Shown here: piece by piece, positions 18,759 to 58,401 of the stretch | How the letters are laid out: every line of letters begins with the position of its first letter | How positions within the stretch are numbered: the stretch's first letter is position 1 | Source of the DNA: Ignavibacteriota bacterium | GTDB taxonomy: Bacteria > Bacteroidota > Ignavibacteria > UBA10030 > CAVZMI01 | Reading direction: 5' to 3' | Length of the DNA: 64,000 nucleotides | Assembly (NCBI GenBank): GCA_963776275.1 | Contig: CAVZMI010000021.1 | Coordinates: forward strand, 267,183 to 331,182 | Program-made: the position numbers and the translations under genes | Notes under the pieces: generated by a model | What the model saw: the letters and a program-made list of their open reading frames with translations, nothing else | What the model was told of the DNA's origin: nothing | Database searches by the model: none

Positions 18759-21193
18759 TTATTTAAGAAGTATCATTTTTTTGTTCGATGTGAAATCACC
18801 GGCTTCAAGGCGATATAAATATACACCCGAAGCCATTGCACTGGCATTGAACTTGACAGTATAGAATCCCGCATCCAAATATTTATCAACAAGTGAGGCC
18901 ACTTTTTCGCCCAGGATATTATAAACCGTCAACTTTACATTGGAAGCCTTAATCAATGAGAAGTTAATGCTTGTCGTCGGGTTGAAGGGGTTCGGATAAT
19001 TCTGGGATAAAGAATACGAGGTAGGCAATCCTCCATTCGCGATTTCAATATCTGTGGCTACAGGAAGTCCATATATGGAAATCTCTGCTATGGAATACGC
19101 TCCGCTCTTCGGTGCCAGCAGCGTGAATTTCACATATCTTCCCGTTCCTGTCAATTTGCTCAAGGTCTCTGTCCCGCCTTTGCCACTGGTGACAGTCCTG
19201 ATTGTTGACCACTGACTCAGATCGTTTGATACTTTAACCATGTACTGAGTGGCATAGGCATTATTTGCCCAATGGATAATTATAGTGTTTATTGAATATG
19301 TTCTCTCTAAATCGAGTTGAACCCATTGTTGAATAGGCGCAACCTCTGCCTGCCATCTCGTAACGCTGTCTCCATCCACGATATTCTGCGGTTGGCTAAG
19401 ATTATACGCTACAGTATCATTCGAAGAAACCGTTACAACCGCACCACCGGCTCTGTTAACCTGGTCCGGTGGAGAAACCGGAATCGTTATTGTTATTGAA
19501 TCCCGTTCATCGCCCTGTGTTACCAAGGAATAAGTATGGTGCTCCGAATCTGGATAGATAACCAATGTATCGATGACAGGAACGGCGTTGCCATTCAGAG
19601 TTACTGTAGAACCCTTGACCACCTGCCAAATCAAATCTGCATTTTCTCCAATTCCAACCTGACTCGGAACAGCCTTGAATATCATAATCCTTCCGCTTGG
19701 AAGAACCGTAACAGTTATACTTGCAGTGTCATTCACGTCTCCGTAAGTAGTGAGCGTATATGTCGTAGTGACCAGGGGAGCGATTTTAATGCTGTCATTT
19801 TCCGAGACGCTATTCCCGTCCAGTTTTACATCAGAACCTAGTTGGACATCCCATACGATCTGAGTACTGTCGGTCTTTTGAATCGTACTCGGATTTGCAT
19901 AGAATGCGTAGATGTTGCCTGTTCCCGGGTTAATAATAACATCTCTTTTGTGATTGTCGAACATATATTTCAATGATGTCCATGTGTCCGCCGCCGAACT
20001 GACTCCTCCAAAGTCAGTCCACGACCAGACGAGTGCGCCGGCGTACCCTGTATTATATAACGTTGGAATCAAATTGAGACTGCTTACGCCATCTTTGGCC
20101 TGCATGTGGAACTCGCCGATGACTACCGGCTTATCCAATCCCCATGTGGAACAGGGATGAGTAAACGGAGAAAGCACAGTACTCAGGGGCGACATTATAT
20201 AGTGTACGCAGTAAAAATCCAGCGTTCCGAGACTATCATTACCTGCCGCTATCAATTCACTATTACTGTAGTAATTCTTATTTGCCAGAGGTTCGATTCT
20301 GGCAAGATAATTCAGGTAATCTTCCACCGTAAGATTCAGCCTATGCAGCTTATTGAACTCGCTTACAAATTGCGCCTGCTGGCTGGTAGACCAATTAGCG
20401 AATCTGTCATGTGATGTCGTCGGTTCCTTCGCAAGGACATTGACATTTGTAAGAGTCTGAAAACTATTTGCTCCGGATGTCACAAGTGCTGTCGGGTCAG
20501 TCCTATGAATCGCCCCGGCCATGAGATTGACGCTCCTCTGAATACTTGCCATCGGGACGTGGTCACGCCCACCCCAGCCAAACTCGTTTGTAATGCCTTC
20601 CGGTTCATTGAAAATTTCCCAGGCAACAATCGCAGGATGACCTGCAACTGCACTTACCATGGGAATCAATGCGTTTCTGATATAGGCATTTGTATAGGCG
20701 GTGTCTGTCAGCAGTCTGGCGTTGCGATGCAGTTTTGCCGTATCCGTACCAAATTCAGATTGATTTAGCATGTCGTGTGACCACAGGCTAAGGATTAATC
20801 CGACATTATTCGCCTGCGCCAGATCAAGAATCTGGGTTAGGTTTTGAATCGCAACCGGACCGGGGCCGGTGACAAATCCATTTGCATCGAAGAACGGTGT
20901 TTGCGTACCGTTTATGTGTAACCATAGACGCAGTACATTCCCGCCATTTTCATGCACGGTTTCGAAAATAGTGGTGAAGGTTGCAATATCAACGGGCCAG
21001 CCAGGTCCCTGGCAAAATTTCCACCACTCGACCAGGCGATATTGATCCCGCTGATGAAGATATTCCTCCCCGCGTACGGAATCCTCGATTGCGAATAACT
21101 AAATTGCAGAGTCCCAATCAACGATATCAACATTAAACAACCAATAATAATACATCGGACATTTCCAAAACCGGATTTCCCAAAGGATTTCAT
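18759..21193 (-). CDS. GH5 (subfamily 10-like) beta-mannanase + Ig-like repeats + CBM32/F5-8C + T9SS CTD; frameshift near 20990
   Basis: ISGINIAW...ARD, LRLWLHING.QTPFFD.NG.VTG, AWEIFNEPEG (acid/base), KPVVIGEF (nucleophile); VDGDSVTRW...WVQLDL; LSQNYPNPFNP. Confidence 0.82.
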
Positions 21194-21369: not shown

Positions 21370-22910
21370 CTATTTTACAACGAGCATCTTCTTCGTATCT
21401 TTATAGTGTCCTGCGACTAACCGATAAAAGTATACTCCTGTCGATAACCCGCCGGCATCAAAAACCGCGAAATGAGAACCGGCAGATTGCTGTTCATTCA
21501 CAAGGGTTACAATACGCTGCCCCAGAATATCGTATACGTTGAGTTGTACGACCGCGTTCTCCTTTAAATCATAATTTATCGTCGTGACCGGATTAAACGG
21601 ATTGGGGAAATTTTGATATAAGATGAAACGATCGACTACATTCGGCTCAACGATCCTATCCGAATCTCTCAGCAAAGCCATAAGCGTAGAATGTTCTTTT
21701 AAAGTTTTGTTCGTTGTAGAATCGGTATCGTACACGGAATTAAGTCCCTGTGCTTCCATCGGGGGATCGCACATGAATGGATCTCCCGTACGCCATTTAT
21801 AATCGACGTTGGGCGAACGGGCTTCTCCGCCCCAGCCCCAGAAATTTGTCCCGGCAATTGGCGATCCTGCTGCGGCGCTGTCGTAGATCATTTGCAGCAG
21901 AGCGGTGAAGTACTGATCACGCATAGTTGTTGTACTGCCGGCATCGTATTTCTGAAGATCTCTCGGCAGGCCGAATTCCTCCATGGCCAACGGTTTGTTC
22001 AACCTACGTGCATATCCGAAATGCTTTTGCATGTAGTCTTTTGCTTTTGCTAATGCAGAAGAATATGTTCCGGCACTGTTAGCAGGGTTGTACCAGCCCC
22101 AGTTTAAAGCCCAGAGATGGATAGTAGCATAATCGATGGATGCGCTCTGATGTGCTTTTATAAAAATAGTCGAATCCCCATTACAGCCCATTGTCCCTTC
22201 ATTTCCCGTTGTGACGAGATGATTGGAATCGAGAGAATGAATGTACTGTGCAGTTGAGTCTATCCACTGATAGAAATATGCAGTGCTTCCCCACGGGCGT
22301 GGTTCATTCGCCAGTTCCCAAGTCATGATGGCGGGATCTTCGTAGTAATGCAATCCTGTTACTGTGCTCTGCCTGCCGATTAAATCGCTAATATATTTTC
22401 GAAAAGCACTCTTCGCATTAGCGTTTTGATAGAAAGATGGGTATCCACCGCCAAACCAGGCATTATACTGGTTCATTCCGCCGGACAGGTCCAGAAATTG
22501 TTCAGAAATATAACCGCGTGCATATCTCTTTTATTCATTTCGGATAGTAAGAAATCTAATCCAATGAGAAGAGAATCATTATAGACACCGGGCGATATTT
22601 GAATAGCAGGCTGTACAGCATCCGGATACGAAGAGGATTCGGAAGCGCCGAGAATCCTGAGATTGTCGATCCCGTTGGCTTTCAACCGGTCAAGTTCCCT
22701 GATAAGCCGTTCTCTATTTCCCGTTTGTCCTGTTGAGCCCAGGTAACAGCCGTACCAGAAATTTGTACCGATATAGTAATATGGTTTCCCGTCGAGGAAA
22801 AATTGTGTGCCTCTGACCTGGACATACGTCGGCTGGGACCAGGTGTGTGCCGTAAAAAGAACACAGTGAACTACAAGCAGCACGCACCAGCCTGAGCGGG
22901 TGATTTTCAT
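21370..22910 (-). CDS. GH5 (subfamily 7-like) beta-mannanase/mannosidase with T9SS CTD; frameshift near 22480
   Basis: YYIGTNFWYG, RELDRLK..GIDNLR, LNNFW, MTWELANEPR, HLVTTGNEG, EEFGLPRD, DPPMEAQGLNSVYDTD; LYQNFPNPFNP. Confidence 0.85.
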
Positions 22911-44132: not shown

Positions 44133-47100
44133 CTATTTCATAAGCACCATCGGCTTACTTGATCGGTGTCCCCCTGATTCCAACACTGCCAGATAAATTC
44201 CGCTGGGAAGTCTTGACGCTAGAAAATTCTCCTCATATACTCTTCCGGCTTCGGCAATTCCATTGAAAAGAACGGCAATTTCCTGTCCCAGGATGTTGAA
44301 AACCTTCAATGTTGCATACCCTTTCTCGGCCAGTGTAAAGTCTATCGTTGTGTTGGGATTAAAAGGATTAGGATAATTATTGTAAAGAACGAACCTCTCG
44401 GGCAGTTCATTAGTAGCTATTATATTTGAAGTTGCTCCATAAATTTCAATTTCATAGAGAGAGTATCCCCATGGCGAAGCTCGTTGTATCCCCAGCATCC
44501 GTACAAAATGTGTCTGTGCTCCGACGGATATTTTATCCGTTCCACCATCACCATTCATAAAATGTACAACATCCATCCATCCCGACATATCATCGGAAAT
44601 CTGGAGATAATACTCTTTTGCGTACGTCCCCCCCCAATGTAATACAACGTTATCGATATACACCTTCGCACCGAGATCGACGATAATGAATTGCGGATCG
44701 CTATATGTGGATGACCATTGTGTATCCATATTACCATCAACGGCATTGGCACCTTCAAGTCCGGTTCGCCTGAAAGATGATACTGTCACCGGTTTATGTA
44801 AAGCAAGATTATGCGGCGGCTCAGGATACACTGTAAATTGCGCAGAGAGAATTGTTAGTCTCCACGCATTCATCCACTGCATTATCAGGATCAACGGTTG
44901 CTTCAACCTCGTACGTACCGATTTCAGCCAACGTCCATGTATTGACGCTTTGAGGACCATGGCTGCCGCTGATCAGAACCATTCCACATGCAGGTATCGG
45001 TCATGCGATTTCGTCTGACCAACTTACGATCTGACCGTTAACATTGAATGTCATCTTGAATGCCTGACCTGCCGGTGTCGGTGCGCTTCCCTGATTTTTC
45101 ACTGTCGCATAGAAAGCAACTTGTTGCCCGGGTAGTGGATACGGCGGCACCATTCTTATATTCGTGATAAGTAGATCAGGTTTCCGCGGATTGTTTCGCA
45201 CATCGAAGTGATCCGAGAGAGGTAGATTATCGGACGAGCCTCCGATACGTACTGTATACTGTCCTGTCTCGACCTCATACGTATCGCTTATTTCATTATA
45301 ATAATATAACTCATCCGCAGTCAGTGTAAGTTCTACCGTTGTGGTCTGCCCGGGATTGATATTCACCCGTTTAAAGCCTTTAAGCTCCTTCACAGCCATC
45401 GGTACAGACGTTTCAGGTTTGCTTAAATAAAGCTGAACTACTTCATCCCCACTCCGAGCGCCTGTATTTGTTACATCCACCTCTACTGTCACCGGTTCTC
45501 CGGGTGCTACAGATGCCGGGGATATCCTCAGATTGCTGTATGAAAATGTTGTATAGCTGAGTCCGTACCCAAAAGCAAACTGCGGCACATATCCCATCTT
45601 GTCGTACCACCGGTATCCGCAGCCGTAGTCATCATTCAGGTCATCATTCCATGCAGGAAGCTGTGCGTCATTTATTGGCATTGTAACCGGCATTTTACCA
45701 CCAGGATTATAATCGCCAAAGAGTACATCGGCGAGCGCATTGCCCCCTTCCTGTCCGGGATAGAACGCATAAATTAATCCTTCGATCGAATTGATACAGC
45801 GATTGAGACTGCAGACTCCGCCGCTGAAAATAGTAACGACAAGATTGGGATTGACGGCTGCGAGTGCATTAATGAGATCCTGTTGCTTGCCTGGCAGGCT
45901 TGTCGAGCCGCCAGAACGGTCAGCTCCTTCTCCTTCCTGACTCGGATCAAGTCCGCCGCAGAAAACGACAACATCCGCACTCTGTGCATAACTCACAGCA
46001 ACAGCAAATCCGGTTGTATCGGCACTATTTATATCGCATCCCTTTGTATAGAGCACCTTCTCTGCCCCGATTTTATTTTCTGTCCCTTGTCGTGGGCTGA
46101 TACTATAATACGGAGTGACATACGCACTTCCAGTCCCATCGATTTGAGCAACAGCAGCACTTGGTCCGACGAGTGCAACCTTGGTAATAGATTTGTTCAG
46201 CGGTAAGATATTATTCTGGTTCTTGAGAAGAACCAGTGACTTCTGTCCGGCTTCGAGACACAACTGTTGATGTGCCGCGCAGTTGACATCGTCAGCATTG
46301 CCCGGCGGTTGATAATCAAGCATACCGGCAAAGATTTTCGTTCGCAGCACACGACGGACAGCGTTATCGATCACTGAGTCTGGAACTGCACCGCTGCTCA
46401 CGAGTCCGGGTAGATCGTTCCCATATTTATCTGAGCCCATACAAATATCGCAGCCGGCTTTGATAGCTAAATCTGAATGAACGATGGAACCCCAGTCGGA
46501 AACTACATAGAACGGAAATCCCCATTGTGTGCGCAGAATAGAAGTCAGTAGAGTGGGATTCTCAGCACAATATTGGCCGTTAATAAGATTATAAGCATTC
46601 ATCACGCACATCGCGCCGCCTTGTTGAACCGCCGTACGGAAGGCAAGCCCTGCCGGTTCGTTGAGTACACGCCGTGCCGCAATGATATTGTTTGTTGTCC
46701 GGCCATTCTCACGGTGGTTGGCATTATAATGCTTGACCGTCGCGATGCACGGTGTCGATTGGATACCTTTAACAACTGCCGTCGTGGTTCGTGCGCAGAG
46801 GTAAGGATCTTCACCTCCTGTTTCCGGACTTCGTCCGTTCCGCGGATCGCGATCGATATCGAGGCATGGTCCGAGGGCCTGGTGTTTTCCTTTACCACGG
46901 AATTCCTTCCCCATAGCCACACCGATTTGCTGGGCGAGGTCGATATCCCACATCGAAGCCATTCCGATACCAACGGGGAAGCTTGTCGCCATTCCGTCAC
47001 GGACACCATGCGGCCCATCCGCCATGATAAAACCGGGGATTCCAAGGCGGGCGTTATTTGGTGTATTAAATGCACCTTCCTGATGGAGCTGCAGTAACTT

Positions 47101-47232
47101 TTCCTGCATCGGCATCTGGTCGAGCAGTGTGTCGATTCTTGCTTCAACCGTCTGTGCGGCGGTTTGCATAAAAGCAAGTCCGAGAAAAACTGGAATAATC
47201 AATACTCTGATTAAGGTATAATATATATTCAT
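44133..47232 (-). CDS. GH3 beta-glucosidase + Fn3-like + CARDB + CBM32/F5-8C + T9SS CTD; two frameshifts (~45000, ~44850)
   Basis: MADGPHGV, GRSPETGGEDP, KHY, VVSDWG, EGEGADR, FGYGLSYT; bridging frame reads VDPDNAVDECVETNN (CARDB); AVDGNMDTQWSS; LYNNYPNPFNP. Confidence 0.88.
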
Positions 47233-47557: not shown

Positions 47558-47589
47558 AAAACCCACAGCGGTTTAGCTGTGGGTTTTTT
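47558..47589. terminator. Rho-independent terminator closing the pilin-like cluster
   Basis: AAAACCCACAGC-GGTTTA-GCTGTGGGTTTT, 12-bp perfect stem with T tracts on both sides. Confidence 0.75.
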
Positions 47590-47631
47590 GTCGCGGCCTC
47601 TCTTCCGCCTTGATAAGTTGTTCGAAGCGAT

Positions 47632-47970
47632 CTATTCAGAAACCGTGAATACGAGAGTACGATTCACGGGGGTAGTATTCTCTGAAATTTGTTGATTTTT
47701 TTTGCGGTCGCTTGATTCAATTCCTGTACTGAGATTTTCTATTGTTGAAGACACTTTACTCGTCGTTACGACATTATCGATTCCAGATTGAACGTTCATT
47801 GCAATGCCAGTTCCTGCAGGTGATGTTGTATCGAGAGATGCGGTCACTTTCGGCGCCGATATTTTTACGCTAAAAGTAATTACCTGACAAGCATGGCTTG
47901 TGGTCTGTGCATTGATTACATCTATCATAGAGACAAGCACCATAACTCCTATCACAAATCGCCAAAACAT
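47632..47970 (-). CDS. Small secreted pilin-related protein (P6)
   Basis: Signal peptide ending AQ; N-terminal QVITFSV and C-terminal RTLVFTVSE strands match the cluster paralogs; Ser/Thr-rich middle. Confidence 0.55.
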   Translation of the reverse strand: MFWRFVIGVMVLVSMIDVINAQTTSHACQVITFSVKISAPKVTASLDTTSPAGTGIAMNVQSGIDNVVTTSKVSSTIENLSTGIESSDRKKNQQISENTTPVNRTLVFTVSE

Positions 47971-47983
47971 GGTCGTTTTCCCC

Positions 47984-48477
47984 TTAATCTGTCACTGTCA
48001 ACGTTACTATTCGTGTTTCATTCTCAATTTCACCGGCACTTGCATTTGCAGCAAAAGTATAGTCGATCGTTTGATTCCTGTCGATTCCTCTTGTAACACC
48101 GGAAACAGCGGTCACAGGTGCAACTGCATCCGATATATCAACGACGCCGGCGCTGTTCCATTTCGAACTCTTGAGGTTAATCATCAATTTCGTCCCTTTT
48201 GGCATAGGATCATTAATAGAAGCGACGATTTTCATGTTATCAAGATTTGTAAGTACATTATATGTCGTGCTATTATCGTTCGATTGGGCGAATTCGGACC
48301 CTGCGGCGGGTCTTGAATGAGGAATGAATGCGGATTCCCTGTTACATTGATTGAAGTAATCGGTTTTACCTCAACAATGATCTGCTGCTGTACGCTGGTA
48401 TTATTGTGCTGAGCGTAGCAAACTCCTGCCACTAAGAAGAATAACCCCAACATCACTATCGCTCGCCGCGTTTCCAT
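47984..48477 (-). CDS. Secreted pilin-like protein (P5), closest to P1; frameshift near 48290
   Basis: Joined ORFs: AQ...QQQIIVEVKPITSINVTGNP...STTYNVLTN...MPKGTKL...YTFAANASAGEIENETRIVTLTVTD, aligning by eye with 54228-54725. Confidence 0.7.
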
Positions 48478-48564
48478 TGCTTTATGCCCTCATGAAAAAA
48501 GAATCAATGATAGAAAACAGCCTTCATTCTATATACCGCCTCAACACCATACAACGTGACAAAG

Positions 48565-48580
48565 TTCAAATAGGATGCCA
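48565..48580 (-). promoter_or_regulatory. sigma54-type promoter for P5-P6
   Basis: TGGCAT-CCTAT-TTGAA on the minus strand, about 90 bp upstream of the ATG. Confidence 0.6.
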
Positions 48581-48720
48581 TCAGGATTCCGGCAAAGTTT
48601 ATTGAGGGCAGCCCTGTAAACTATTTATTGATAAAGGGTTACGGGATGTGACGAGATGGTTATGTAAATAGGGAAAAAGTGGAAATGATGTAGTTTCTAC
48701 AAATTGTATAAGGACAGCGC

Positions 48721-51700
48721 TTATTTCTTGCTTAGAATCATTTTTTCAATTGCCTCGGCTTCTTCACGGATTTTTAGCGAACCAACATAAACGCGGTATC
48801 GTAAACCAATTCCGGGTACACGGACTCTTTTAAGGAATGCAGGTTTTCCTATCAATAACTTCGCCTCTCTGATACCGGCGAGTGCTCTTCTCCTCGATCT
48901 CCATGAAGACGCCTGGACGACATAGCCGCCGCGTTTCTTATTATAACTGATAAGCGAAGGAGCCTGTGTCGGTGAAATTTGTTGAGGACGGCTTGGTTTG
49001 ATTTTCTGTGTTCCTTTCTTCTCCTCGATAACTTTCTCTTCTTGAATGATGCGGATAGCGCGGTGACGTGGAAATATTTTGAATATTGCTTCCTTTCGTT
49101 CGCCAGGACGAAGCTCGATCTCGTATGAATCCTTTTCCAAATAATGATTCTCCGGAAGCTGACCTTCGAGAAGTGTGAGTACCCACCGCCCCGGGCGGAT
49201 ATCCGTGAATGTCCATCGGCCCTGATTATCGCTTATGCGGCGGATTATTTCTGTTCCGTTCGAGAGTTGAAGAATAATGTCAGGCTGACCGCGGAGTTCG
49301 ATAATTTCCGGGGTAAGACTGTCTGCCTTCATTCTTTCACTGAGTCCGTAAAGAATGACAGAACCGGTAACAGAGCAGCTTCGGACTACACCAAGCGCGA
49401 ATTCCGAAACTCCTCCTCCAGAGAGCAGAATTTCCATTGGCAGCGGTTTCGTTGTAACACGGCCATATCCGATACTCATCCTGTCAACCTGGAGATAATA
49501 CGTTCCCGGCGGAAGACCTGGAAAACGGAAATTCCCATCATCATCTGTGAGCGCAGTCGCATCACCAATGTTCAGAAGCGCTTTCCCGACCCCCTTATTT
49601 TTCTCGACATCGACGACACGGCCGCCGATTTCCCCCAATGATCCACTTCGACCAATCGGGATAAGAATCGGTACCGAGTACCCAGCAATAAAGGCCCGTG
49701 TCCGGCCATCGACAGCAGGCGAAACAGTACTCTGGCGACCATGGAATGAAATTATGTGTCCGAATGAAAATGTATGTTCAATGGCGAAATCAATAATTGT
49801 ATATGTCTGCGTTGATGATGAGATTGCCCTGCTTCCATAAACATTGAGAGTAAAGCGTGTCTTATCGCTTAGCTGACTCAGGAGAAACAAACTAGCTGAT
49901 TGCTGTTTCTGTTCTTCGTCTGTCTCGACATTGACCTGTTTATCGTATTCGACAGTGAAATTGAGATTGTGACTATCCAGAATGCGAAAACCGGCATTCG
50001 CATAATACCGTGAGTACGGTTCGTTTTTCCCCATAAGCCTGTCTTCGACCCAGCCGATATCGGCATTAACCGAGATATTCAGCCATGAAAAATTATATCC
50101 GCTGCTGAACTGATACATATGATCAACCTGACTGTATTTTGAAACCGGAAGTAGATCCTCTCGTTTTGTGACCCTGTAACGAACAGAAACGAGATCGGAA
50201 TAACCCAATCCAGCCTCATAATATCGATCACGTGGAGCAATATACTGTAGAGTATCAAGATTGATATTTCGCCGTTCGTCCCTGAGGTAACCCTCAATAT
50301 GGAAGAGTTTCCACGGGTAGAAAGTAATGCTGGCAGCAGTCGATCGTATATCCCGGTAATATCCGCTGTAAAGTGGACCCGCATTAATATAACGGAGATC
50401 CATATTCACAAATGACGATTGGACATTGAATTGTCCTGCAAATGCATGATCGTTCCCCTGGGGATTTGAGCTTAATCCATATTCCACATCTACGCCTGTA
50501 CTTTGGAACGGCTGGTACAATGTCCGGAAGGAATAGATTGTGCTTTTCACCGATTCTTTTTTCTGCAGCGTATTGATGCTTATATTCAAATTATTCAGAA
50601 TCCGAGCTCCGAGAAAGCCTCCGTATTGTTCAAGAGCAGGTGAATAGAATCGGGTTTTGTTATAGAATCCTCCCACCGTGATCGGTGAAATAACAATTCT
50701 TCCACCTCCTCCAAATCCATATCTCGAAAATTCCGTCAATTGCGTGAGTGTATAAATTTGATCGCCGGCATAGAGATCAAGCTTTTCGCTCTTATAGCCG
50801 GCTCTATATTCATCCCGATAACCAAGGACGGATTGCTCAATCGTCTGTGGAGTGCGAATAAGCAAACTGAGGATATCTTTGCCTCCATCAGAAAGGGGTG
50901 CTGAGCTTGTCAATTCAAATTGAGTCCGATATGCCTCATCGCTCCCTGTCGGATGGATAGTAATCAACAGCGGATACCGATATATCGTGCTGCTCACATA
51001 ATCAATTCTGGGTATGATATCCGAGACTGCCGAAGCGTGTGCAACTATAGTCGTATCAGTAACACTCGATGCATATAATTCAAGAAGGGCACGCGTCTTT
51101 ACAGAAATTGAATGGCTTGTTGGGGCAATAGCTTTAATGTGACGGGTCTCGTTCGGCTTTAGTCGTATCAACGTACTGTCAACGAAGGCCGAATCGACAC
51201 CGACTACTTTCGTGTGCAATCGTATCCGGGTCAGCTCATTCCCTTTATTCACCAGGGTGAATTGCGTAATCAAGGTGTCGCCGGCGATAACATATCGCGA
51301 TGCGTCTGTGAATTGAAGTTCGAGACTCCGTATAGGAAGTATTGTAATTGGAACCGACGCTTCGACTCCGAGATAGATGGCAGTCAATGATTTCAACCGA
51401 TATCGGAAAGGATATTGACCGGCTGCCGCTTCCAGCGGGATCGAGAAACTCACCAGCAGAATATCTCTCTGCATCGGCGCGAGTTCAACTCTAGTTCTTC
51501 GCATTAACGCATGCCAGCCAGCCGGGAGAAATGCTTCACCCTCGAGACGTTGTGATTGCGAAGTATTGTTTAAAATTAAAAAGCTTACAGTAATGACTTT
51601 TCCCGGTGTTGTCTCGATCGGTGCCGTGTTCGAAGGTTGAATGATAATACCTTGCGCCCAACATAAAGTCGGCACCGCTACGGAAATCATCACCAACGTC

Positions 51701-51759
51701 ATAATATAAAAAATCCGGCTTCTGTGAACCGGATAAAATATGCTCTGTAATCTTTCCAC
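48721..51759 (-). CDS. Large outer-membrane usher-like protein: N-terminal Ig-like domains, predicted beta-barrel, two SdrD-B/carboxypeptidase-regulatory-like domains, C-terminal SPOR domain
   Basis: Signal peptide; LPAGW...IPLEAAAGQY Ig/NEW3-like; long alternating aromatic beta-strands; TDDDGNFRFPGLPPGTY and SDNQGRWTFTDIRPGRW; YVVQASSW...RYRVYVGS..REEAE. Confidence 0.6.
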   Translation of the reverse strand: MERLQSIFYPVHRSRIFYIMTLVMISVAVPTLCWAQGIIIQPSNTAPIETTPGKVITVSFLILNNTSQSQRLEGEAFLPAGWHALMRRTRVELAPMQRDILLVSFSIPLEAAAGQYPFRYRLKSLTAIYLGVEASVPITILPIRSLELQFTDASRYVIAGDTLITQFTLVNKGNELTRIRLHTKVVGVDSAFVDSTLIRLKPNETRHIKAIAPTSHSISVKTRALLELYASSVTDTTIVAHASAVSDIIPRIDYVSSTIYRYPLLITIHPTGSDEAYRTQFELTSSAPLSDGGKDILSLLIRTPQTIEQSVLGYRDEYRAGYKSEKLDLYAGDQIYTLTQLTEFSRYGFGGGGRIVISPITVGGFYNKTRFYSPALEQYGGFLGARILNNLNISINTLQKKESVKSTIYSFRTLYQPFQSTGVDVEYGLSSNPQGNDHAFAGQFNVQSSFVNMDLRYINAGPLYSGYYRDIRSTAASITFYPWKLFHIEGYLRDERRNINLDTLQYIAPRDRYYEAGLGYSDLVSVRYRVTKREDLLPVSKYSQVDHMYQFSSGYNFSWLNISVNADIGWVEDRLMGKNEPYSRYYANAGFRILDSHNLNFTVEYDKQVNVETDEEQKQQSASLFLLSQLSDKTRFTLNVYGSRAISSSTQTYTIIDFAIEHTFSFGHIISFHGRQSTVSPAVDGRTRAFIAGYSVPILIPIGRSGSLGEIGGRVVDVEKNKGVGKALLNIGDATALTDDDGNFRFPGLPPGTYYLQVDRMSIGYGRVTTKPLPMEILLSGGGVSEFALGVVRSCSVTGSVILYGLSERMKADSLTPEIIELRGQPDIILQLSNGTEIIRRISDNQGRWTFTDIRPGRWVLTLLEGQLPENHYLEKDSYEIELRPGERKEAIFKIFPRHRAIRIIQEEKVIEEKKGTQKIKPSRPQQISPTQAPSLISYNKKRGGYVVQASSWRSRRRALAGIREAKLLIGKPAFLKRVRVPGIGLRYRVYVGSLKIREEAEAIEKMILSKK

Positions 51760-51768
51760 TTTGTTAGT

Positions 51769-52590
51769 TTAGAACTTCAATGTATGCTGGGCTCCAAAGA
51801 TATCAGCTCCACCGCCGTCGACAACAACCATCGCCTTATATGTACCTGACGGGATTTTGCTGAGATCAATCATTTGCCGCACCGATGTACCGGGATACAT
51901 CCGGTATTTTGTCCCCAAAAATTTCCCGATAGACATTCCTTGTGCATCAAACAATTCGACATACATATCGGGCCGGAATCCGATATCACCGATGTTCTCA
52001 ATATCAACCTGGAGATAACGCTCACCCGGTTTAGGCGAGACAATTTTCGTTTCAAGAAATTTTATATCTTTTACACCCGTCTGCGCAATATGGGTGGCAA
52101 TTTGGATCCCATATCTGATCGTCTGCCGGATCCCCATTTGTGTCTTTCGTGGATCTACCGGAGCCGAAGATTCACCCGAGCCTTTCGGGATCGCTTCGAC
52201 CATTATCATGCTCCAGTATGTTCCGATTAGTTTTTTCGTCTCACTGTTTTGAGGAACCATGAGGGTATAACTGACCGACATTGTTCTCTGCGGTGGTACT
52301 GTCACATACGATGGACTGAATGTGATCCATTTTGCATTCGAGCGGGCTTGCAAGCCGGGTTCACCATAATTATTGGTTCCATCATACCGGAAGGTGTAAT
52401 CGGTCTGATAAATTTTTGCTTCCTGCGGTTCATTACTGTCATTCTTGATAAGTATTGAACCTTCATATTTCGCACCCGGTTGGGCTTCACGGTCATGACT
52501 GAGATCGCCGATGATGGAAATTTGTGCGACGCAGATTTGAATTACAAGGATGTAAAGCAATAAAAATACGAAAATGATTCGTTTTCTCAT
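51769..52590 (-). CDS. Periplasmic PapD/DUF916-like two-domain Ig chaperone
   Basis: Signal peptide; IKNDSNEP, SNAKWITFSPSYVTVPPQ, GTYWSMIMVE, RYGIQI, IENIGD, YPGTSVR, PSGTYKAMVVVD. Confidence 0.65.
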   Translation of the reverse strand: MRKRIIFVFLLLYILVIQICVAQISIIGDLSHDREAQPGAKYEGSILIKNDSNEPQEAKIYQTDYTFRYDGTNNYGEPGLQARSNAKWITFSPSYVTVPPQRTMSVSYTLMVPQNSETKKLIGTYWSMIMVEAIPKGSGESSAPVDPRKTQMGIRQTIRYGIQIATHIAQTGVKDIKFLETKIVSPKPGERYLQVDIENIGDIGFRPDMYVELFDAQGMSIGKFLGTKYRMYPGTSVRQMIDLSKIPSGTYKAMVVVDGGGADIFGAQHTLKF

Positions 52591-52601
52591 ACGACATCCT
52601 T

Positions 52602-53063
52602 CTAAGGTGTTAGTGTATATGTAATCCGGTGACGATCATTCCCAAGCTCGATGCTATTTCCCTTGCTGTATAAAGTCGAGGCAGTGTAATTGATCGTTGC
52701 TGTAGCGTTCGTACCACTCCTTGTTATACCTGTGATAAAATCATGAGCGTTTGTATCGGTAAAAGTGACTGTGCCTGCCGCAACGCCTCTAGTGACATTC
52801 GACGCATATACTGATAGAGTAAAATGGGGATTCACAAGATTCGTTTGTACTGTGATTCTCCATAAATTATTATTCACATTTTGCCGATAACGAAGACTGC
52901 AACCAGAATTTGTTGCATTGACCGGTTGTGTTTGTGATGTTCCTGTTATAATAGTTAACGTTGGCGCCGTTCCGAGAATCGTAAGCGTTTGGGCTTCAAG
53001 GGAATAGTGCACAAAAAAAACCAGAACAGCAATACCTATTTTTATATGGAAAAAGTATCTCAT
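52602..53063 (-). CDS. Secreted pilin-like protein (P4)
   Basis: Signal peptide ending AQ; HDFITGI, INYTAS, C-terminal HRITYTLTP shared with paralogs. Confidence 0.65.
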   Translation of the reverse strand: MRYFFHIKIGIAVLVFFVHYSLEAQTLTILGTAPTLTIITGTSQTQPVNATNSGCSLRYRQNVNNNLWRITVQTNLVNPHFTLSVYASNVTRGVAAGTVTFTDTNAHDFITGITRSGTNATATINYTASTLYSKGNSIELGNDRHRITYTLTP

Positions 53064-53071
53064 AAATGCAC

Positions 53072-53575
53072 CTATTGCGTTACGGTAAAGGTGATATGAT
53101 GTATATCTGTTCCAACTCCTGTCGACGCGAGAGCCGTTCCTGTATATCGAAGAGTACAGTAACCCATTGATCTTCCGATATTTAGAATGAAATCCTGTAC
53201 TGTCCTTGAAAGCGTCAATTCAGAGGCTGCAACCGCAGAACCGGGGGATGGATCGACCGACACGACATTTGCCGCATAGATTTTTAATGTGTACAAGGGA
53301 GATCCCAGGTCCGTCGCCACGGTTACTTTTCGGTTACTTGAATTCGTTGCCCAGTATAAATAGCTGTTCTCATTGGTCACAGTCATCGCATCTACTCCGG
53401 CGACTGCCTGAGCATCAGTGATGGAGAGAGTGACCGAGGCGGGATTGATAGTTATATAGGTAAGAGCATTAACATTTACGGTGACATTATGTCTACGGGA
53501 AACTTGAGCTCTCCCCCAGAATCCGAGAAAGATATAGAGAAGAAAAGCGAGAAATATGATCTGATATCGCTTCAT
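53072..53575 (-). CDS. Secreted pilin-like protein (P3)
   Basis: Signal peptide ending AQ; HNVTVNV, LYWATNSSNRKVTV, CTLRYT, GVGTDIHHITFTVTQ. Confidence 0.68.
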   Translation of the reverse strand: MKRYQIIFLAFLLYIFLGFWGRAQVSRRHNVTVNVNALTYITINPASVTLSITDAQAVAGVDAMTVTNENSYLYWATNSSNRKVTVATDLGSPLYTLKIYAANVVSVDPSPGSAVAASELTLSRTVQDFILNIGRSMGYCTLRYTGTALASTGVGTDIHHITFTVTQ

Positions 53576-53630
53576 GAGGTGTATCCTCCGCTTCCAATAT
53601 AGAAGGTTTCAGCTCGAAATTCAACACTTG

Positions 53631-54140
53631 CTAACTATTTGTAATAGTATAGGTCAGGATATACGATTCCGTCCCGACTCCGGCGCCAAGAGTTGTCGAG
53701 GCTGTAACACGAAGGGTACACCGGCCGGTTTTTTTCGACACACCAACAACAAGATCGTGAGGCTGATTGTCGACCAGTACTATCTCGGGTGTCGCTGTCC
53801 CGGCATTATTTGTTATATTCTGAGCTTCCATTTTTAATAGGAAGCGTGACGATTGGCGATCTGATGTTACGGTCAACTTTTTATTGTCACCATTTGTTGC
53901 CCACGATAGAAGACCGTCGGTATTGACAACCGAAATTGTATCTCCTGAATTTGCCTGGGCCTGACTGATCGTCAGCTGTAGCGTCGGGATATTGACACTC
54001 ACCTTATTGATTTCTTCAACACGCAGAGTGATCGTCTGCTGGGTGTTGGCCTGTTGTGCAAGTGTTGAAGAGCCGAAGAGCAAGGTACTCAGGATTAACC
54101 CGATCACCATCCCCACAGCCAATTTCCGTATCCTCTTCAT
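53631..54140 (-). CDS. Secreted pilin-like protein (P2)
   Basis: Signal peptide ending AQ; QTITLRV, LSWATNGDNKKLTV, HDLVVGV, CTLRVT, GVGTESYILTYTITNS. Confidence 0.68.
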   Translation of the reverse strand: MKRIRKLAVGMVIGLILSTLLFGSSTLAQQANTQQTITLRVEEINKVSVNIPTLQLTISQAQANSGDTISVVNTDGLLSWATNGDNKKLTVTSDRQSSRFLLKMEAQNITNNAGTATPEIVLVDNQPHDLVVGVSKKTGRCTLRVTASTTLGAGVGTESYILTYTITNS

Positions 54141-54170
54141 GATTGTTATTCCCCCCTGCAAATACCTTTT

Positions 54171-54213
54171 AAAAAAAATCCGCGACCGATACCGAATATC
54201 TGCCGCGGATTCT
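54171..54213 (-). terminator. Intra-operon terminator/stabilising hairpin after P1
   Basis: Minus strand ATCCGCGGCAGATATTCGGTATCGGTCGCGGAT followed by a T7-8 run. Confidence 0.7.
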
Positions 54214-54227
54214 TCAGCATCCTCACA

Positions 54228-54725
54228 TTAGTTGGTCAATGTGAGTGTTACAGTCCGTGTAGTTGAGGCTATTGTACCAGCGGATGCGTTCGCTTCTAAA
54301 GTATAGGTTATCAATTTTGCTGCATCAGCACCCTTCGCTATTCCTGTCACAAGGTCAACGGGACTACCGGACGTAAGAGTTTGTGAACCCTGACCCGTCC
54401 CACCGCTTGCACCGACAAGAGCTACCTTCAATGCCGTGCCCGCAGGCATGTCACCATTAGCAGTGATCTGTCCGGTGATCTTTAAAGCGCTATTTGAATT
54501 ATGGGTTATACTATATGTGGTTGTTGCATCACTCACCGGGGTCAAAGCATCGGTTCCTGCCGTTCCAGCCGTAATATTGAGAACACCCGGATCCCCCGAA
54601 ACTGCGAGTTTTGTCACAGCGCTTACCACAAAAGTTACTGTCTGATCATCTGCTTGAGCAAACACGCTTTGTGTGAACATCAGGCTTAAAGCCAGCACCA
54701 CGAGAACAACTAAAGACTTCTTCAT
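54228..54725 (-). CDS. Secreted pilin-like protein (P1), probable major subunit
   Basis: GGGGAGG RBS; signal peptide ending AQ; Thr/Ala/Gly-rich beta protein DQTVTFVV...YTLEANASAGTIASTTRTVTLTLTN; first gene after promoter, followed by hairpin. Confidence 0.7.
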   Translation of the reverse strand: MKKSLVVLVVLALSLMFTQSVFAQADDQTVTFVVSAVTKLAVSGDPGVLNITAGTAGTDALTPVSDATTTYSITHNSNSALKITGQITANGDMPAGTALKVALVGASGGTGQGSQTLTSGSPVDLVTGIAKGADAAKLITYTLEANASAGTIASTTRTVTLTLTN

Positions 54726-54797
54726 AACAACCTCCCCAGATTTAAAGTTTTGTAATTTCATTTTGCTACTCCCTCTTCACTCTTTAGTTGATAATTA

Positions 54798-54813
54798 CTC
54801 AACTCCCGTGCCA
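54798..54813 (-). promoter_or_regulatory. sigma54-type promoter for the pilin-like operon
   Basis: TGGCAC-GGGAG-TTGAG on the minus strand. Confidence 0.65.
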
Positions 54814-54884
54814 ATCGAAATTTCCCTTATTTCCATCATTTTTTAATAGTTATGTTTCTAGTACATGATTTATTATGAGAAATA

Positions 54885-54988
54885 TGACTCATTATGATAC
54901 ATGTTGAGAATATCATATATCTTGGCCTTTTCTTAAAGATATATTAACTTATTCTATGAATCAATATTCGTTGTCTCATAATGGTACA
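54885..54988. promoter_or_regulatory. Two candidate enhancer (UAS) sites for the NtrC-family activator
   Basis: TGACTCATTATGATACA (54885-54901) and TGTCTCATAATGGTACA (54972-54988); 14/17 identical imperfect palindromes, each about 71 bp from a sigma54 -24 box. Confidence 0.5.
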
Positions 54989-55058
54989 ATACGTTTATGT
55001 TTAGAAAATTTATCACAAAAAAGTGGTCTGAATATAAGCATTTTCCATTCAAATCACC

Positions 55059-55074
55059 TGGCATAATCGTTGAT
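55059..55074 (+). promoter_or_regulatory. sigma54-type promoter for the histidine kinase
   Basis: TGGCAT-AATCG-TTGAT, about 27 bp upstream of the start. Confidence 0.6.
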
Positions 55075-55100
55075 ATATTTATAGATAGAAAAGGAGTGAT

Positions 55101-55907
55101 GTGATGAGAACGGATGAAAATGAGAAAATAGATAAACAGGCTAAAAGAAGACAATTCGACGAGACTCAGAAGCAGATAATACTGAAAGAGCTTGATCATA
55201 TGAAGGGAAATTTTGTGTCTCGCATGTCGCACGAATTTCGTACGCCTTTGACATCGATCCTTGGATTTGCCGAGCTTATTGTCGACGATCCGGAGATGTC
55301 GGCTCAAACATGCAAGAAATTCGCGCGCATCATTCTTAGCGAAGGAGAGCGTCTCTCTGTGTTGATTAATAATCTTCTCGATCTTTCGTTGATTGAAAAA
55401 GGGGGATTGCCTACAAGGATGACCGAAGAAAATATTGTTCCTATAATTGAAGATGTTATTGTGACTCTGGTACCGCAGGCACGGCCAAAATTATTGACTA
55501 TTACATCGGACTTTCAAAGTCGATCCATCCCGGTATCCATCGATAAAAGCCATTTCCGGGAAATTATTCACCAGCTGCTTTCCAATGCAATCAAGTTCAC
55601 TCCTGCCGGCGGTCATATATGGATCGGAACTGAGATCTGCGACGGGCACATCGAAACATGGATCCGGGATACCGGGATCGGCATCTCTCCGACGGATCTT
55701 CCATATATATTTCAGAAATTCTATAGAGCCCAGCGTTCCGGGGAGGAAATGCCCGGAGCAGGATTAGGACTTGCAATTGTCAAACAACTTGTCGAACTTC
55801 AAGGTGGAAGCATCAGCGTACGGAGTAAAGAGAGTGTCGGATCGACATTTATCCTTCGCTTCCCGAGAACAGAGACAATCCTGGCTCGCTCTATGGGATC
55901 TTTCTGA
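55101..55907 (+). CDS. Cytoplasmic histidine kinase (HisKA + HATPase) lacking a sensor domain
   Basis: SHEFRTPLTSILG H-box, LLSNAIKFT, RDTGIGI, FQKFYR, GAGLGLAIVK; only ~30 aa precede HisKA. Confidence 0.9.
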   Translation: MMRTDENEKIDKQAKRRQFDETQKQIILKELDHMKGNFVSRMSHEFRTPLTSILGFAELIVDDPEMSAQTCKKFARIILSEGERLSVLINNLLDLSLIEKGGLPTRMTEENIVPIIEDVIVTLVPQARPKLLTITSDFQSRSIPVSIDKSHFREIIHQLLSNAIKFTPAGGHIWIGTEICDGHIETWIRDTGIGISPTDLPYIFQKFYRAQRSGEEMPGAGLGLAIVKQLVELQGGSISVRSKESVGSTFILRFPRTETILARSMGSF

Positions 55908-55964
55908 CCCTATCGTTCGTTATTCGATGCGGTGAAGAGGGGTAAGTTGCTATTCTTTTTCCTT

Positions 55965-56014
55965 CTTGTCCTGAGCGAGTACTTCCAGAGAATCAGGAAG
56001 TGCGAGTCGAAGGA
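55965..56014. repeat. REP-like palindromic element
   Basis: CTTGTCCTGAGCGAGTACTTCC...GGAAGTGCGAGTCGAAGGA; same CCTGAG...GTCGAAGGA family as at 37280. Confidence 0.55.
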
Positions 56015-56074
56015 TTTCTCTATGCGTGCTCTGATTGATGTTTGGTGTAATCTTTCACCTTTAGTGGACGCAAT

Positions 56075-57454
56075 GTGGCAGAAAAACTCATCTACATCGT
56101 TGAAGACGAACCATCGATTGCCACAATTTTAGAATTCACAGCGACACGGAAATGGGGCTGCCAGGCCCGAGTATTCCCGAATGGCGAATCATGTCTTCAA
56201 CACCTCGATCCCGCTCCCGATCTCATACTCCTCGATGTTATGATGCCCGGAATCGGCGGCGTCGAGACACTGAAAGAAATCAAGCGGCGACACCCTGATA
56301 TGCCCGTGATTATTCTCTCTGCGCAGGGACGTATCGAGGTTGCTCTTGAAACGATTAAGCTCGGCGCGGTAGATTATTTCACCAAACCGGTCGATTTTGC
56401 CAAACTTGAGATTTCAGTTCGTAATATCTTCCAGCTTGCCGATCTAACGCTCGAAGTCCAGCAACTCCGAGAAAGTATCGAAAAACGCGTACATTTTGAC
56501 AATATTATCTCCGGAAGCGGGGAAATGCAGGAGATTTTCACCTTGATAAACAAGGTGAAAGACAGCGACATGTGTGTACTCGTTCTGGGCGAAAGCGGCA
56601 CGGGAAAAGAATTGATAGCACGCGCAATTCACTATAACGGAAACCGCAAGAGCGGTCCTTTTGTCGTAGTAAATTGTGCATCGATTCCCAGAGATTTACT
56701 CGAGAGCGAATTCTTCGGCCATGAGAAGGGCTCGTTCACGGGTGCATTTCAACGGCGCATTGGAAAATTCGAGCAGGCCAATGGAGGCACGGTTTTTCTT
56801 GATGAAATTGGTGATCTTGATATCGCGCTCCAGGCCAAAATACTCCGGGTTATTCAATCGAAACAATTTGAGCGCGTTGGCGGGAACGAAACGCTGACAA
56901 CTGATACACGATTGATATCGGCAACAAATCGGGATCTCGGTGAAATGGTACGGCAAAAACTTTTTCGTGAAGATCTATATTTCCGTCTTGCTATGTTTCC
57001 AATTCTTATCCCGCCGTTAAGGCAACGGCGCTCAGATATTTTGCTGCTGGCAGAACATTTTCTAAAGAGATTCATGGAGGATCATCATAAAACTGGCCTC
57101 CGCTTTTCACGGAAAGCACTGAAAATTCTCTATGAATATCCATGGCCGGGAAATGTCCGTGAACTCGAACATGCGATCCAGCGCTCCGTTGTCATGGTCG
57201 ATAGCGATACGATAACAGAACGCGAACTGCCGATGTCGATTCAGACGTTTGCTGCACAACCGACATCGACTCAGGCGGCATCCCTTCTTTTCACAGAAGG
57301 AAATGCAATTGTGCCGCTCGAAAAGGTAAAAGAGGCAACCATACGTCATGCGCTGAGAATAACCAACGGCAATATTGTGGAAGCAGCGGTAAAACTGAAA
57401 ATCGGAAGGGCAACGCTCTACAGGTTGATGAAAAAATATAAGATTGCAGATTAG
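56075..57454 (+). CDS. sigma54-dependent response regulator (REC-AAA+-Fis HTH)
   Basis: LLDVMMPG receiver, GESGTGKE, ESEFFGHEKGSFTGA, FLDEIG, FREDLYFRL, WPGNVREL, LKIGRATLYR. Confidence 0.95.
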   Translation: MAEKLIYIVEDEPSIATILEFTATRKWGCQARVFPNGESCLQHLDPAPDLILLDVMMPGIGGVETLKEIKRRHPDMPVIILSAQGRIEVALETIKLGAVDYFTKPVDFAKLEISVRNIFQLADLTLEVQQLRESIEKRVHFDNIISGSGEMQEIFTLINKVKDSDMCVLVLGESGTGKELIARAIHYNGNRKSGPFVVVNCASIPRDLLESEFFGHEKGSFTGAFQRRIGKFEQANGGTVFLDEIGDLDIALQAKILRVIQSKQFERVGGNETLTTDTRLISATNRDLGEMVRQKLFREDLYFRLAMFPILIPPLRQRRSDILLLAEHFLKRFMEDHHKTGLRFSRKALKILYEYPWPGNVRELEHAIQRSVVMVDSDTITERELPMSIQTFAAQPTSTQAASLLFTEGNAIVPLEKVKEATIRHALRITNGNIVEAAVKLKIGRATLYRLMKKYKIAD

Positions 57455-57528: not shown

Positions 57529-58401
57529 TTATTTCAGCAAACTCATTTTTCCGATACTAACGTTCGTCCCCGCCGTTAATTTGTAATAATAAATCCCGCT
57601 TGGGAATCCATTCCCATTGAAAGTCACAGAATGAGACCCCGGCTCCAACTCGCCATTCACGAGTACTGCAACTTCCTGTCCGAGCGTGTTATACACAACC
57701 AATTTGGCCATACTGTGGGATGGAAGTATAAACTCCACGGTTGTGGACGGATTGAATGGATTCGGGTAATTTTGTTCGAGATGGAAAATGATCGGCTGTG
57801 AAGTCGTGCTTTGTGCTATACCGGTTGTTCCTGAGAAAACCAGATCATCCAGAAGAAAATATGAACCGACATGCGGTGTCGCGTCTAATCCGGTACCTGG
57901 CCCAACTATCTGAATTTGAATAATACAGGTGTCTGGAGTTTCACCGTTGAAGTATGTGAACGGAGTAGAAAATTGTGTCCATGACGATACGTTCGTTGAA
58001 AGTGCTGCGGCGGCAAGTGCGACACTAGTTCCCTCTATTCCTCCCTTAAAAAGGGCCACATTAATAGCGAACCGATCACCGCCTGTGGGAAAGAACTGAT
58101 AGTAACCGGTAAAAGCGGCAGGTCGCTGAGTATAAGCATATCCTCTAGCGTCCGGGCCTATCTGAAGCACCGGTTGGAGCACGGTTGTGAACAAAGAAAT
58201 TACCTCTCCACGTGCTGAGTGACTCCCAGAATGTGCGGTGTTCGATGCAGTAACAGTAATTAATTCCCCGGCATTACTGGTAGCCCAGCCGTCGGGATTA
58301 TTACCTGCCCAATTTTCAAATCCCGAGTTTGGAATTTGTGCAAGGGCGATCGAGACACAAAGAAACAGGAGAGCGGAACAGCGAAGTAACAGATTAATCA
58401 T
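57529..58401 (-). CDS. T9SS-secreted protein with carbohydrate-binding-like (PCMD-like) domain
   Basis: AQIPNSGFENW..PDGWAT, RPAAFTGYYQF, WTQFSTPFTY, LLDDL; LEQNYPNPFNP CTD. Confidence 0.75.
   Translation of the reverse strand: MINLLLRCSALLFLCVSIALAQIPNSGFENWAGNNPDGWATSNAGELITVTASNTAHSGSHSARGEVISLFTTVLQPVLQIGPDARGYAYTQRPAAFTGYYQFFPTGGDRFAINVALFKGGIEGTSVALAAAALSTNVSSWTQFSTPFTYFNGETPDTCIIQIQIVGPGTGLDATPHVGSYFLLDDLVFSGTTGIAQSTTSQPIIFHLEQNYPNPFNPSTTVEFILPSHSMAKLVVYNTLGQEVAVLVNGELEPGSHSVTFNGNGFPSGIYYYKLTAGTNVSIGKMSLLK

Follow-up and report, generated by a model that had tools for sequence, protein, structure and literature searches.

What would be built by an operon that combines six small secreted proteins with a periplasmic two-domain protein and a large beta-rich protein, and that lies beside its own pair of regulators? 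We asked this of a locus in an Ignavibacteriota bacterium (assembly GCA_963776275.1, contig CAVZMI010000021.1, positions 267,183 to 331,182), a stretch of 64,000 nucleotides that we call the window throughout. Eight co-oriented minus-strand genes encode the small proteins P1–P6, a 273-amino-acid protein and a 1012-amino-acid protein of outer-membrane type, and genes for a kinase and an activator are transcribed divergently from them (Table 1). Chaperone-usher pili are chaperone-assisted donor-strand pili known from Proteobacteria, and a first-pass annotation had proposed a system of this kind. With a probability of roughly two-thirds, we read the operon as encoding a sigma-54-controlled, chaperone-assisted donor-strand fibre that is exported through an outer-membrane platform other than an usher. 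The fibre system of the original proposal is supported; the 1012-amino-acid protein, in which no Usher signal was found, is not a member of the Usher family. All eight structural genes were present on the minus strand where they had been placed, and the alternating strands quoted from the N termini (QTVTFVV, QTITLRV, HNVTVNV, QQIIVEV, QVITFSV) and C termini (RTVTLTLT, ILTYTIT, HITFTVT, RITYTLT, RIVTLTVT, RTLVFTVS) were found in the translations. NCBIfam holds no family for any structural gene, and neither P1–P6 nor the 273-amino-acid protein matched a Pfam family above its cut-off.

The case for a dedicated chaperone comes from the predicted structure of the 273-amino-acid protein. An AlphaFold2 (AF2) model from a 57-sequence alignment (predicted local distance difference test (pLDDT) 94.6, predicted template modelling score 0.86) consists of a signal helix and two beta-sandwich (Ig-like) domains. 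A beta-strand at residue 272 closes the model, and the signal peptide is the only helix, so that there is no C-terminal membrane helix. Foldseek returned Enterococcus faecium WxLIP as the best match (9i25_C, 5.6e-13; also 9i1y), followed by CfaA, YadV, CsuC, Caf1M, FimC and EcpB. Alignment with VIA-align gave Z 16.9 for WxLIP 9i25_C (230 residues aligned, root-mean-square deviation 6.3) and 16.1 for a second WxLIP; WxLIP led the list by 4 Z units, and the roughly 40 rows that follow were pilus chaperones, with those of chaperone-usher systems scoring from 13.0 down to 10.3. By its modelled fold, the protein is closest to the Gram-positive WxLIP and not to PapD. It had earlier been taken for a PapD-like chaperone; the two-domain donor-strand chaperone fold is upheld, and PapD as its closest relative is replaced by WxLIP.

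Sequence comparisons of the same protein point in this direction faintly. PF06030 (DUF916/WxLIP_PGBD) gave 15.6 bits for the window protein against a cut-off of 27.3, matched 8 of the 57 family members at E<=0.01, and reached 27.8 bits against that cut-off in a distant relative (locus L085). PF11797 (DUF3324) was not among the six Pfam families matched by the 57 members at this threshold, and a profile of the family found nothing among PDB sequences (best E 0.7). The family is large, with 1647 clusters at 50% identity at E<=1e-3 and 434 at E<=1e-30. Relatives of the window protein numbered 489 in 90% clusters, and every name shown among the 120 listed was 'hypothetical protein'.

The candidate major subunit, P1, has an open reading frame (ORF) of 177 amino acids from the first ATG; the second Met, at 54725, is the likely start, giving 165 amino acids and a mature protein of 142. 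An AF2 model of the mature protein, built on a 55-sequence alignment, reached pLDDT 96.3. Residues 1–14 (QADDQTVTFVVSAV) lie outside any strand and the core begins at residue 15. The best Foldseek matches, from E 6.8e-3, were CfaB, FimA/FimI, CS17, the FimH pilin domain, CsuA/B, Caf1 and TasA (3.4e-2). We ran VIA-align twice, over Foldseek's list and, independently of Foldseek, over 48,161 representative chains; Z was 8.1 for the CfaE pilin domain and CfaB, 6.8–8.0 for CS17, 7.9 for CooA, 7.6–7.8 for CanA, 7.6 for EcpA, 7.2 for TLP-1/TLP-1b and 6.5 for a bundling pilus. Most of these alignments start at model residue 12–17. A pilin-like fold for P1 is argued from the uniformity of the match list for the model, not from its scores. 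WxL chains were not among the top 50 structural matches, which is not proof that the folds differ, and a P1 profile found nothing meaningful among PDB sequences (best E 0.14, herpesvirus gH). Within the extension that precedes the core, hydrophobic residues occupy positions 7, 9 and 11 in 55 of 55 sequences, in alternation with Thr/Ser. Conservation in the P1 family is 0.54 in the extension, 0.55 in the core and highest, at 0.77, in the C-terminal strand.

P1 is one member of a family within the operon. BLASTP between the paralogues gave 2.6e-19 for P1–P5, 2.3e-24 for P2–P3, 2e-11 for P3–P4 and 7e-8 for P2–P4. A P1-class hidden Markov model (HMM), searched against a database of 8 sequences with signal peptides included, found P2, P3 and P4 at 1e-14 to 1e-16 and P6 at 2e-5. 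By sequence P6 would be the weakest member, weakly linked, since the P1-class HMM reached it at 2e-5 only; among the related loci BLAST found P6 only in L001 and L007. Six paralogues had been claimed, and this stands for P1–P5, with P6 at the margin of the family and P5 split into two ORFs. The P2 orthologous class comprises 29 related genes, and P3 has a weak Pfam match to DUF7137, below its cut-off. The consensus of the P4 class (49 sequences) begins ..GGNxTLxITTG and aligns to P1 after its extension. A subunit without the extension would have nothing to donate to, and P4 is for this reason a candidate distal cap or tip. P1-class genes are duplicated 1–5 times in tandem in relatives.

The family is nearly invisible to annotation. 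We found 250 relatives of P1; among the 120 listed none had a Pfam domain, and all were named 'hypothetical protein' except two evident mis-annotations. No match to Fimbrial or SCPU was seen for P1–P6 or the P1 family. PF13731 (WxL) gave no match for P1–P6 at E<=1 and was not among the families listed (25 of 33) for 48 members; P1 contains no tryptophan. For P1 a protein atlas gave unnamed clusters and one automatic name, 'Fimbrial assembly protein', and its language-model lead, the only link to WxL, scored 0.91 with 163 shared features. The LPxTG motif is absent from P1–P6, all of which end in ...T-x-T-x, and no adhesin-type tip domain was found in any subunit in the translations or by Pfam.

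The 1012-amino-acid protein would supply the way out. Its layout comprises a signal peptide, an Ig-like region (residues ~40–260), a central beta-rich region (~270–700), two transthyretin-like domains (~710–900) and a SPOR domain (943–1004). In the window copy Pfam recognized CarboxypepD_reg (42.5 bits), SpaA (38.7 bits), a weak NPCBM_assoc and, just short of its cut-off of 21, SPOR (20.4 bits). Among 35 homologues at E<=0.01, CarboxypepD_reg was matched in 35, NPCBM_assoc in 25, FixG_C in 21, SPOR in 12 and Porin_4 in 7; Porin_4 was above its cut-off in 4 of 13 homologues examined singly, spanning residues ~263–548. A profile of the large protein found only the transthyretin-like domains of NOMO among PDB sequences, and the protein atlas placed it in COG1470 and CarboxypepD_reg clusters. 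Its own genome (96.41% complete) contains no match to PF00577 (Usher), and an E. coli control was matched. From its domain content, the large protein looks like a porin-type barrel set between Ig-like and transthyretin-like/SPOR domains; on the profile evidence it is not a member of the Usher family. We take it to be the probable assembly and secretion platform.

The predicted control of the operon can be followed from the regulators to the promoters. The kinase has HisKA and HATPase_c as the only domains that Pfam recognizes, and the activator combines a receiver, an AAA+ domain and a Fis-type helix-turn-helix. TGGCAY-N5-TTGA occurs 4 times in the window where 0.38 are expected, and 0 of 100 shuffles reached 4. 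The element before the kinase points to possible autoregulation. A fourth occurrence, at 18842–18856 (+), falls within an ORF of the minus strand, has no plus-strand gene downstream and is probably due to chance. We scanned relatives with the looser TGG[CT]A[CT]-N5-TTG[CA], for which the background is 0.014 per 300 nucleotides, and found it upstream of 34 of 79 P1-class and 16 of 23 P5-class genes of the related loci; before internal genes it was seen in 0 of 25 (P2 class), 1 of 55 (P3 class) and 1 of 49 (P4 class). One related locus (L012:30-4272) has five tandem P1-class genes with a sigma-54 type element before four of them, the fifth having too little upstream DNA to examine. rpoN is present in the genome (188.5 bits). 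The separate sigma-54 circuit that had been proposed is thereby substantiated in its kinase and activator domains, its -24/-12 elements and its sigma factor; with activator, promoter elements and rpoN all present, the genes have the predicted make-up of a sigma-54-dependent two-component regulon.

Table 1 Genes and promoter elements of the predicted fibre operon and its regulators (positions in the window)
Feature	Position	Strand	Basis
P1, predicted major fibre subunit	54228..54761	-	AF2 fold, donor-strand pilin matches
P2, minor subunit paralogue with N-terminal amphipathic strand	53631..54161	-	BLASTP to P3
P3, minor subunit paralogue with N-terminal amphipathic strand	53072..53575	-	BLASTP
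P4, subunit paralogue without donor-strand segment at mature N terminus	52602..53063	-	Class consensus
273-amino-acid periplasmic two-Ig-domain chaperone-like protein, signal peptide	51769..52590	-	AF2 fold
1012-amino-acid outer-membrane-type protein	48721..51759	-	Pfam domain content
P5, P1-like subunit gene, own sigma-54 type promoter, frameshifted in assembly	47984..48477	-	
P6, secreted protein of 112 amino acids whose N- and C-terminal strands are subunit-like	47632..47970	-	
Histidine kinase, 268 amino acids	55101..55907	+	HisKA 63.4 bits, HATPase_c 96.1 bits (Pfam)
NtrC-family response regulator / sigma-54 activator	56075..57454	+	Sigma54_activat 230.2, Response_reg 90.9, HTH_8 31.1 bits
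TGGCAC-N5-TTGA -24/-12 element upstream of P1	54799..54813	-	
TGGCAT-N5-TTGA -24/-12 element upstream of P5	48566..48580	-	
Sigma-54 type -24/-12 element, 28 nucleotides upstream of kinase start	55059..55073	+	

If these genes make one machine, they should travel together. A scan of species-representative genomes gave 114 chaperone relatives, for which 80 loci were fetched; one (L071), in which no chaperone ORF was called, was dropped from the counts. Of the 61 loci that extend 3.2 kb or more downstream, 60 have the large gene directly after the chaperone gene; the sole exception in gene order (L078) has it upstream. One or more subunit genes lie upstream of the chaperone in 65 of 69 loci, and in 26 of 47 the large gene is followed by a P1/P5-like gene. 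Where 7 kb or more of upstream DNA is available, a large sigma-54 activator is found upstream in 22 of 34 loci. Even a distant locus (L082) keeps the architecture of subunit, chaperone and large protein. The gene-neighbourhood survey, which the first-pass annotation had listed as a check, thus showed the genes to be co-conserved across several diderm phyla. The taxon labels of the loci are Ignavibacteriota/Bacteroidota, Planctomycetota, Deltaproteobacteria/Thermodesulfobacteriota, Spirochaetales, Zixiibacteriota, Verrucomicrobiota, Gammaproteobacteria, Bacteriovoracaceae, Rhodothermales and others. Three loci (L039, L055 and L074) carry the full system under the labels Synechococcus or Clostridia, which are likely to be binning errors, or else reflect gene transfer. 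Of 301 genomes sampled from the window's phylum, 74 match at E<=1e-3 (34 of 144 genera), in many cases distantly, and the window genome holds one copy of the system. A FastTree tree of the chaperones, from which sequences shorter than 240 amino acids were dropped and for which the rest were trimmed to their last 255 residues and phyla were assigned from the titles of the records, hints that the clades broadly follow phyla.

Comparison with a close relative, L001, located the variation within the operon. Its flanks are 93–98% identical in DNA to the window in most 300-column bins, with a few intergenic or edge bins at 80–92%. The segment 54985–48862 is only 54–75% identical, outside a gap-rich stretch in which L001 carries a second P1 gene. 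This variable cassette of 6.1 kb takes in the P1 promoter, P1–P4, the chaperone gene and that portion of the large gene which precedes its SPOR part. P5 and P6 are 95–98% identical to L001, and the kinase and activator lie within the conserved flanks. The cassette looks like the product of allelic replacement or diversifying selection, a pattern that would suit an exposed structure under selection. Such hypervariability within near-identical flanks suggests strong diversifying pressure, for example from phages or grazers.

In the assembly P5 is split into two ORFs, 48232–48477 and 47984–48235. Compared with an intact ortholog of 164 amino acids in L001, the window copy has a 1-nucleotide deletion in a G-run. 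Contigs of two public runs (X1 and X2), one 94% and the other about 99% identical to the window over the part compared, carry an extra base behind 48298; no RNA run was listed as containing the stretch. On account of this extra base, the break appears to be strain-specific or an assembly error and not a feature of the system; it is possibly phase-variable. Right after the P6 stop codon, an inverted repeat (AACCCACAGC ... GCTGTGGGTT) at 47560–47590 (-) may be the terminator of the operon.

How does this system relate to known ones? Its closest structural counterpart is the Elr/WxL pilus (PDB 9i25, 9i1y). Enterococcus WxL clusters build a pilus by donor-strand exchange that is primed by ElrE, a chaperone with DUF916/DUF3324 that is anchored in the membrane, and the system is reported only in Bacillota in the part of that preprint on which we draw (bioRxiv 10.64898/2026.10.17.759780). 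The two share the two-domain helper fold, our top structural match, and the weak sequence link to DUF916. As far as the same part of the preprint goes, in both an operon combines a chaperone gene with genes for small paralogous subunits whose N termini carry an amphipathic strand, and tipless forms exist there too. The two systems also differ. The chaperone here would be soluble, with a signal peptide, without the C-terminal membrane helix and without a DUF3324 match; the subunits have no WxL Pfam match and no LPxTG or sortase anchor; and an outer-membrane protein of ~1000 amino acids is always present, in hosts that are diderms.

With classical, class 5 (CFA/I) and archaic (Csu) chaperone-usher systems, the locus shares its operon logic and a periplasmic chaperone of two Ig domains. 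The pilin-like fold of the P1 model is nearest to CfaB, CooA, EcpA and CsuA/B, and one subunit class is, like tip subunits, without the N-terminal extension. However, none of the three sequence families that define those systems (Usher, PapD_N, Fimbrial) is found here, the subunits have no lectin-type tip domain, and control is by sigma-54. The outer-membrane protein also differs, with a porin-type centre, an N-terminal CARDB/FixG_C-like region, two transthyretin-like domains and a SPOR domain. Donor-strand fibres that form without a chaperone (TasA, archaeal bundling pili and Pyrodictium cannulae, CanA) are all among the structural matches of P1, but those systems are without a dedicated two-domain chaperone and an outer-membrane platform.

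A further set of relatives was met in DUF4402 (PF14352) clusters of Bacteroidota, which contain distant relatives of the chaperone (profile E 9e-18 and 1e-16) and have the same three-part architecture. In two such loci (L086:4894-12380 and L087:4906-11656) the chaperone relative lies between small secreted proteins, four in number and of the DUF4402 or a DUF4402-like kind, and a protein of 1166–1175 amino acids, which in L086 carries a strong SPOR domain. Products of the genes beside these two systems begin in a way that we take to be that of type IV minor pilins. PF14352 gave no match for P1–P6 at E<=1 and was not among the families listed for 48 members. A DUF4402 link of the P1 family itself was rejected at the level of profiles: hhalign aligned the signal peptide and first strand only (47 columns, probability 84%). 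We found no paper in the literature describing the DUF4402/PF14352 clusters, and no description of the diderm system among the papers listed in a literature search that excluded supplements. Together these comparisons place the system between chaperone-usher and WxL/Elr, with a WxLIP-like soluble chaperone, an unannotated pilin family and a non-usher platform.

A working model can be drawn from these parts. P1–P6 would be exported by Sec and take the form of pilin-like beta-sandwiches, each with an extension at its N terminus that is conserved and amphipathic. As a relative of the WxLIP/DUF916 chaperones, the two-Ig-domain protein, soluble in the periplasm, would cap the open fold of each subunit. 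The 1012-amino-acid protein would form the outer-membrane platform with its porin-like barrel as conduit; its periplasmic Ig-like and transthyretin-like domains may dock the chaperone–subunit complexes, and its SPOR domain may tie the machine to peptidoglycan. Subunits would then join by donor-strand exchange, with P1 as the major subunit, P4, which is without the extension, at the distal end, and P2, P3, P5 and P6 as minor or adaptor subunits. The adjacent kinase and NtrC-type activator would switch on the sigma-54 promoters before P1 and P5. Of this scheme, the analysis shows how the chaperone and P1 are predicted to fold, which domains the large protein carries, and that the genes and their promoters are conserved together in relatives; chaperone–subunit binding, strand exchange, the order of subunits, passage through the barrel and surface exposure are steps that we infer.

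Several results weigh against a donor-strand fibre with a porin-type platform and are gathered here. Foldseek returned no match to the P1 model at E<=1e-3, and the structural Z scores (<=8.1) are middling, Z 7–8 being typical, according to the tool's own note, for models without a clear relative. Residues 1–10 of the P1 model have a pLDDT of 83, and so confident an N terminus might reflect packing on its own subunit. In this assembly P5 carries a frameshift. In the large protein, Porin_4 has no match at E<=1 in the window copy and is found in only 7 of the 35 homologues, and a crude scan of the alignment for amphipathic strands gave just 13 segments. PF00577 is not among the families listed for these homologues at E<=0.01 (25 of 29, the last with one member), PapD_N and PapD_C are not among the six Pfam families matched by 57 chaperone members at E<=0.01, and hhalign gave probabilities of 0.7% against E. 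coli FimD, 0.7% against FimC and below 1% against FimA. The strict pattern TGGCAC-N5-TTGC, with one mismatch, occurs 3 times in the window against 2.98 expected, which is no enrichment, and the -12 element reads TTGA, not TTGC, at most sites.

Could the same parts make something other than a fibre? The proteins might form a non-filamentous complex of the envelope or surface, a beta-sandwich coat, adhesin or ligand-binding set with no donor-strand polymer, in which the two-Ig protein would act as a partner with a structural role, and the large protein would serve as a porin-like anchor or exporter tethered to peptidoglycan. Ig-like sandwiches are common, the best Z for P1 is only about 8, its monomer model is confident over the full length with the N terminus included, and Ig-like, CarboxypepD_reg and SPOR domains occur in many envelope proteins that have nothing to do with pili. 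There is also a precedent, in that the WxL cluster was long taken for a static platform, and WxLIP read as one, in the part of the earlier work that we cite (PMC10599100). Yet the top of both structure lists for P1 consists almost purely of subunits of donor-strand polymers, and for the 273-amino-acid protein WxLIP leads by 4 Z units and the next ~40 rows are pilus chaperones. An N-terminal strand that is conserved yet lies outside the sheet, together with a paralogue class that lacks it, also weighs against this reading, and a tandem major class with fixed minor classes is a layout typical of pili. We consider this alternative unlikely, while granting it a real chance.

Two further readings keep the fibre and change its machinery or its place. 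The operon could be an extremely diverged member of the true chaperone-usher systems, with the 1012-amino-acid protein as an usher homologue (a 24-strand barrel with a plug) and the 273-amino-acid protein as a member of the PapD family. The gene logic of subunits, chaperone, large outer-membrane protein and more subunits is the same, the chaperone aligns to CfaA, FimC, CsuC, Caf1M and PapD at Z 10–13, P1 comes nearest to pilins of class 5 and of the archaic type, and in the large protein, as in ushers, beta-sandwich domains flank the central region on either side. Set against this are the missing PF00577 in the homologues and in the 96.4% complete genome, the hhalign values below 1% for FimD, FimC and FimA, a central region that scores as Porin_4 in homologues, and a chaperone that is nearer to WxLIP than to any PapD-type protein and whose 57 members include no PapD_N match at E<=0.01, so that we regard such an origin as quite improbable. 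Alternatively the fibre may stay within the envelope, as a periplasmic or wall-associated scaffold tied to peptidoglycan by SPOR. That domain is present at 20.4 bits (cut-off 21) in the window copy, in 12 of 35 homologues and, in a distant system, at 65.7 bits; the domains outside the barrel are all likely to be periplasmic, and no subunit has an adhesin-type tip domain. But a hypervariable cassette amid flanks of 93–98% identity is the pattern expected for exposed structures, and the central porin-type region offers a plausible exit. To an internal scaffold we give a very slim chance. Across these comparisons we prefer the exported, chaperone-assisted donor-strand fibre with a non-usher platform.

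Outside the operon, four neighbouring genes (44133–44960, 57529–58401, 18759–20957 and 21370–22476) encode secreted proteins with a ...NYPNPFNP...-type C-terminal segment, which we take to be the sorting domain of type IX secretion. The product of 45001–47232 presumably belongs with the family 3 glycosidases, which it resembles.

What would such a fibre mean? A broader reading, which we put forward tentatively and at somewhat less than even odds, is that the locus represents a third, ancient chaperone-guided pathway of donor-strand pili in diderms. Its chaperone would share ancestry with WxLIP/ElrE, its pilin family would be new and its platform independent of ushers, across several phyla (Ignavibacteriota/Bacteroidota, Planctomycetota, Thermodesulfobacteriota, Spirochaetota and others). 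If this is true, the assembly principle of the WxL type would extend beyond Bacillota, and strand exchange primed by a chaperone would be older than the divergence of single- and double-membrane envelopes. The donor-strand fibre itself, if confirmed, would bear on the origin of donor-strand assembly and would offer a natural experiment in how other components can be made to provide an usher function. For these organisms it would be a surface organelle that no annotation currently shows, encoded by a system that is conserved in many poorly studied environmental phyla.

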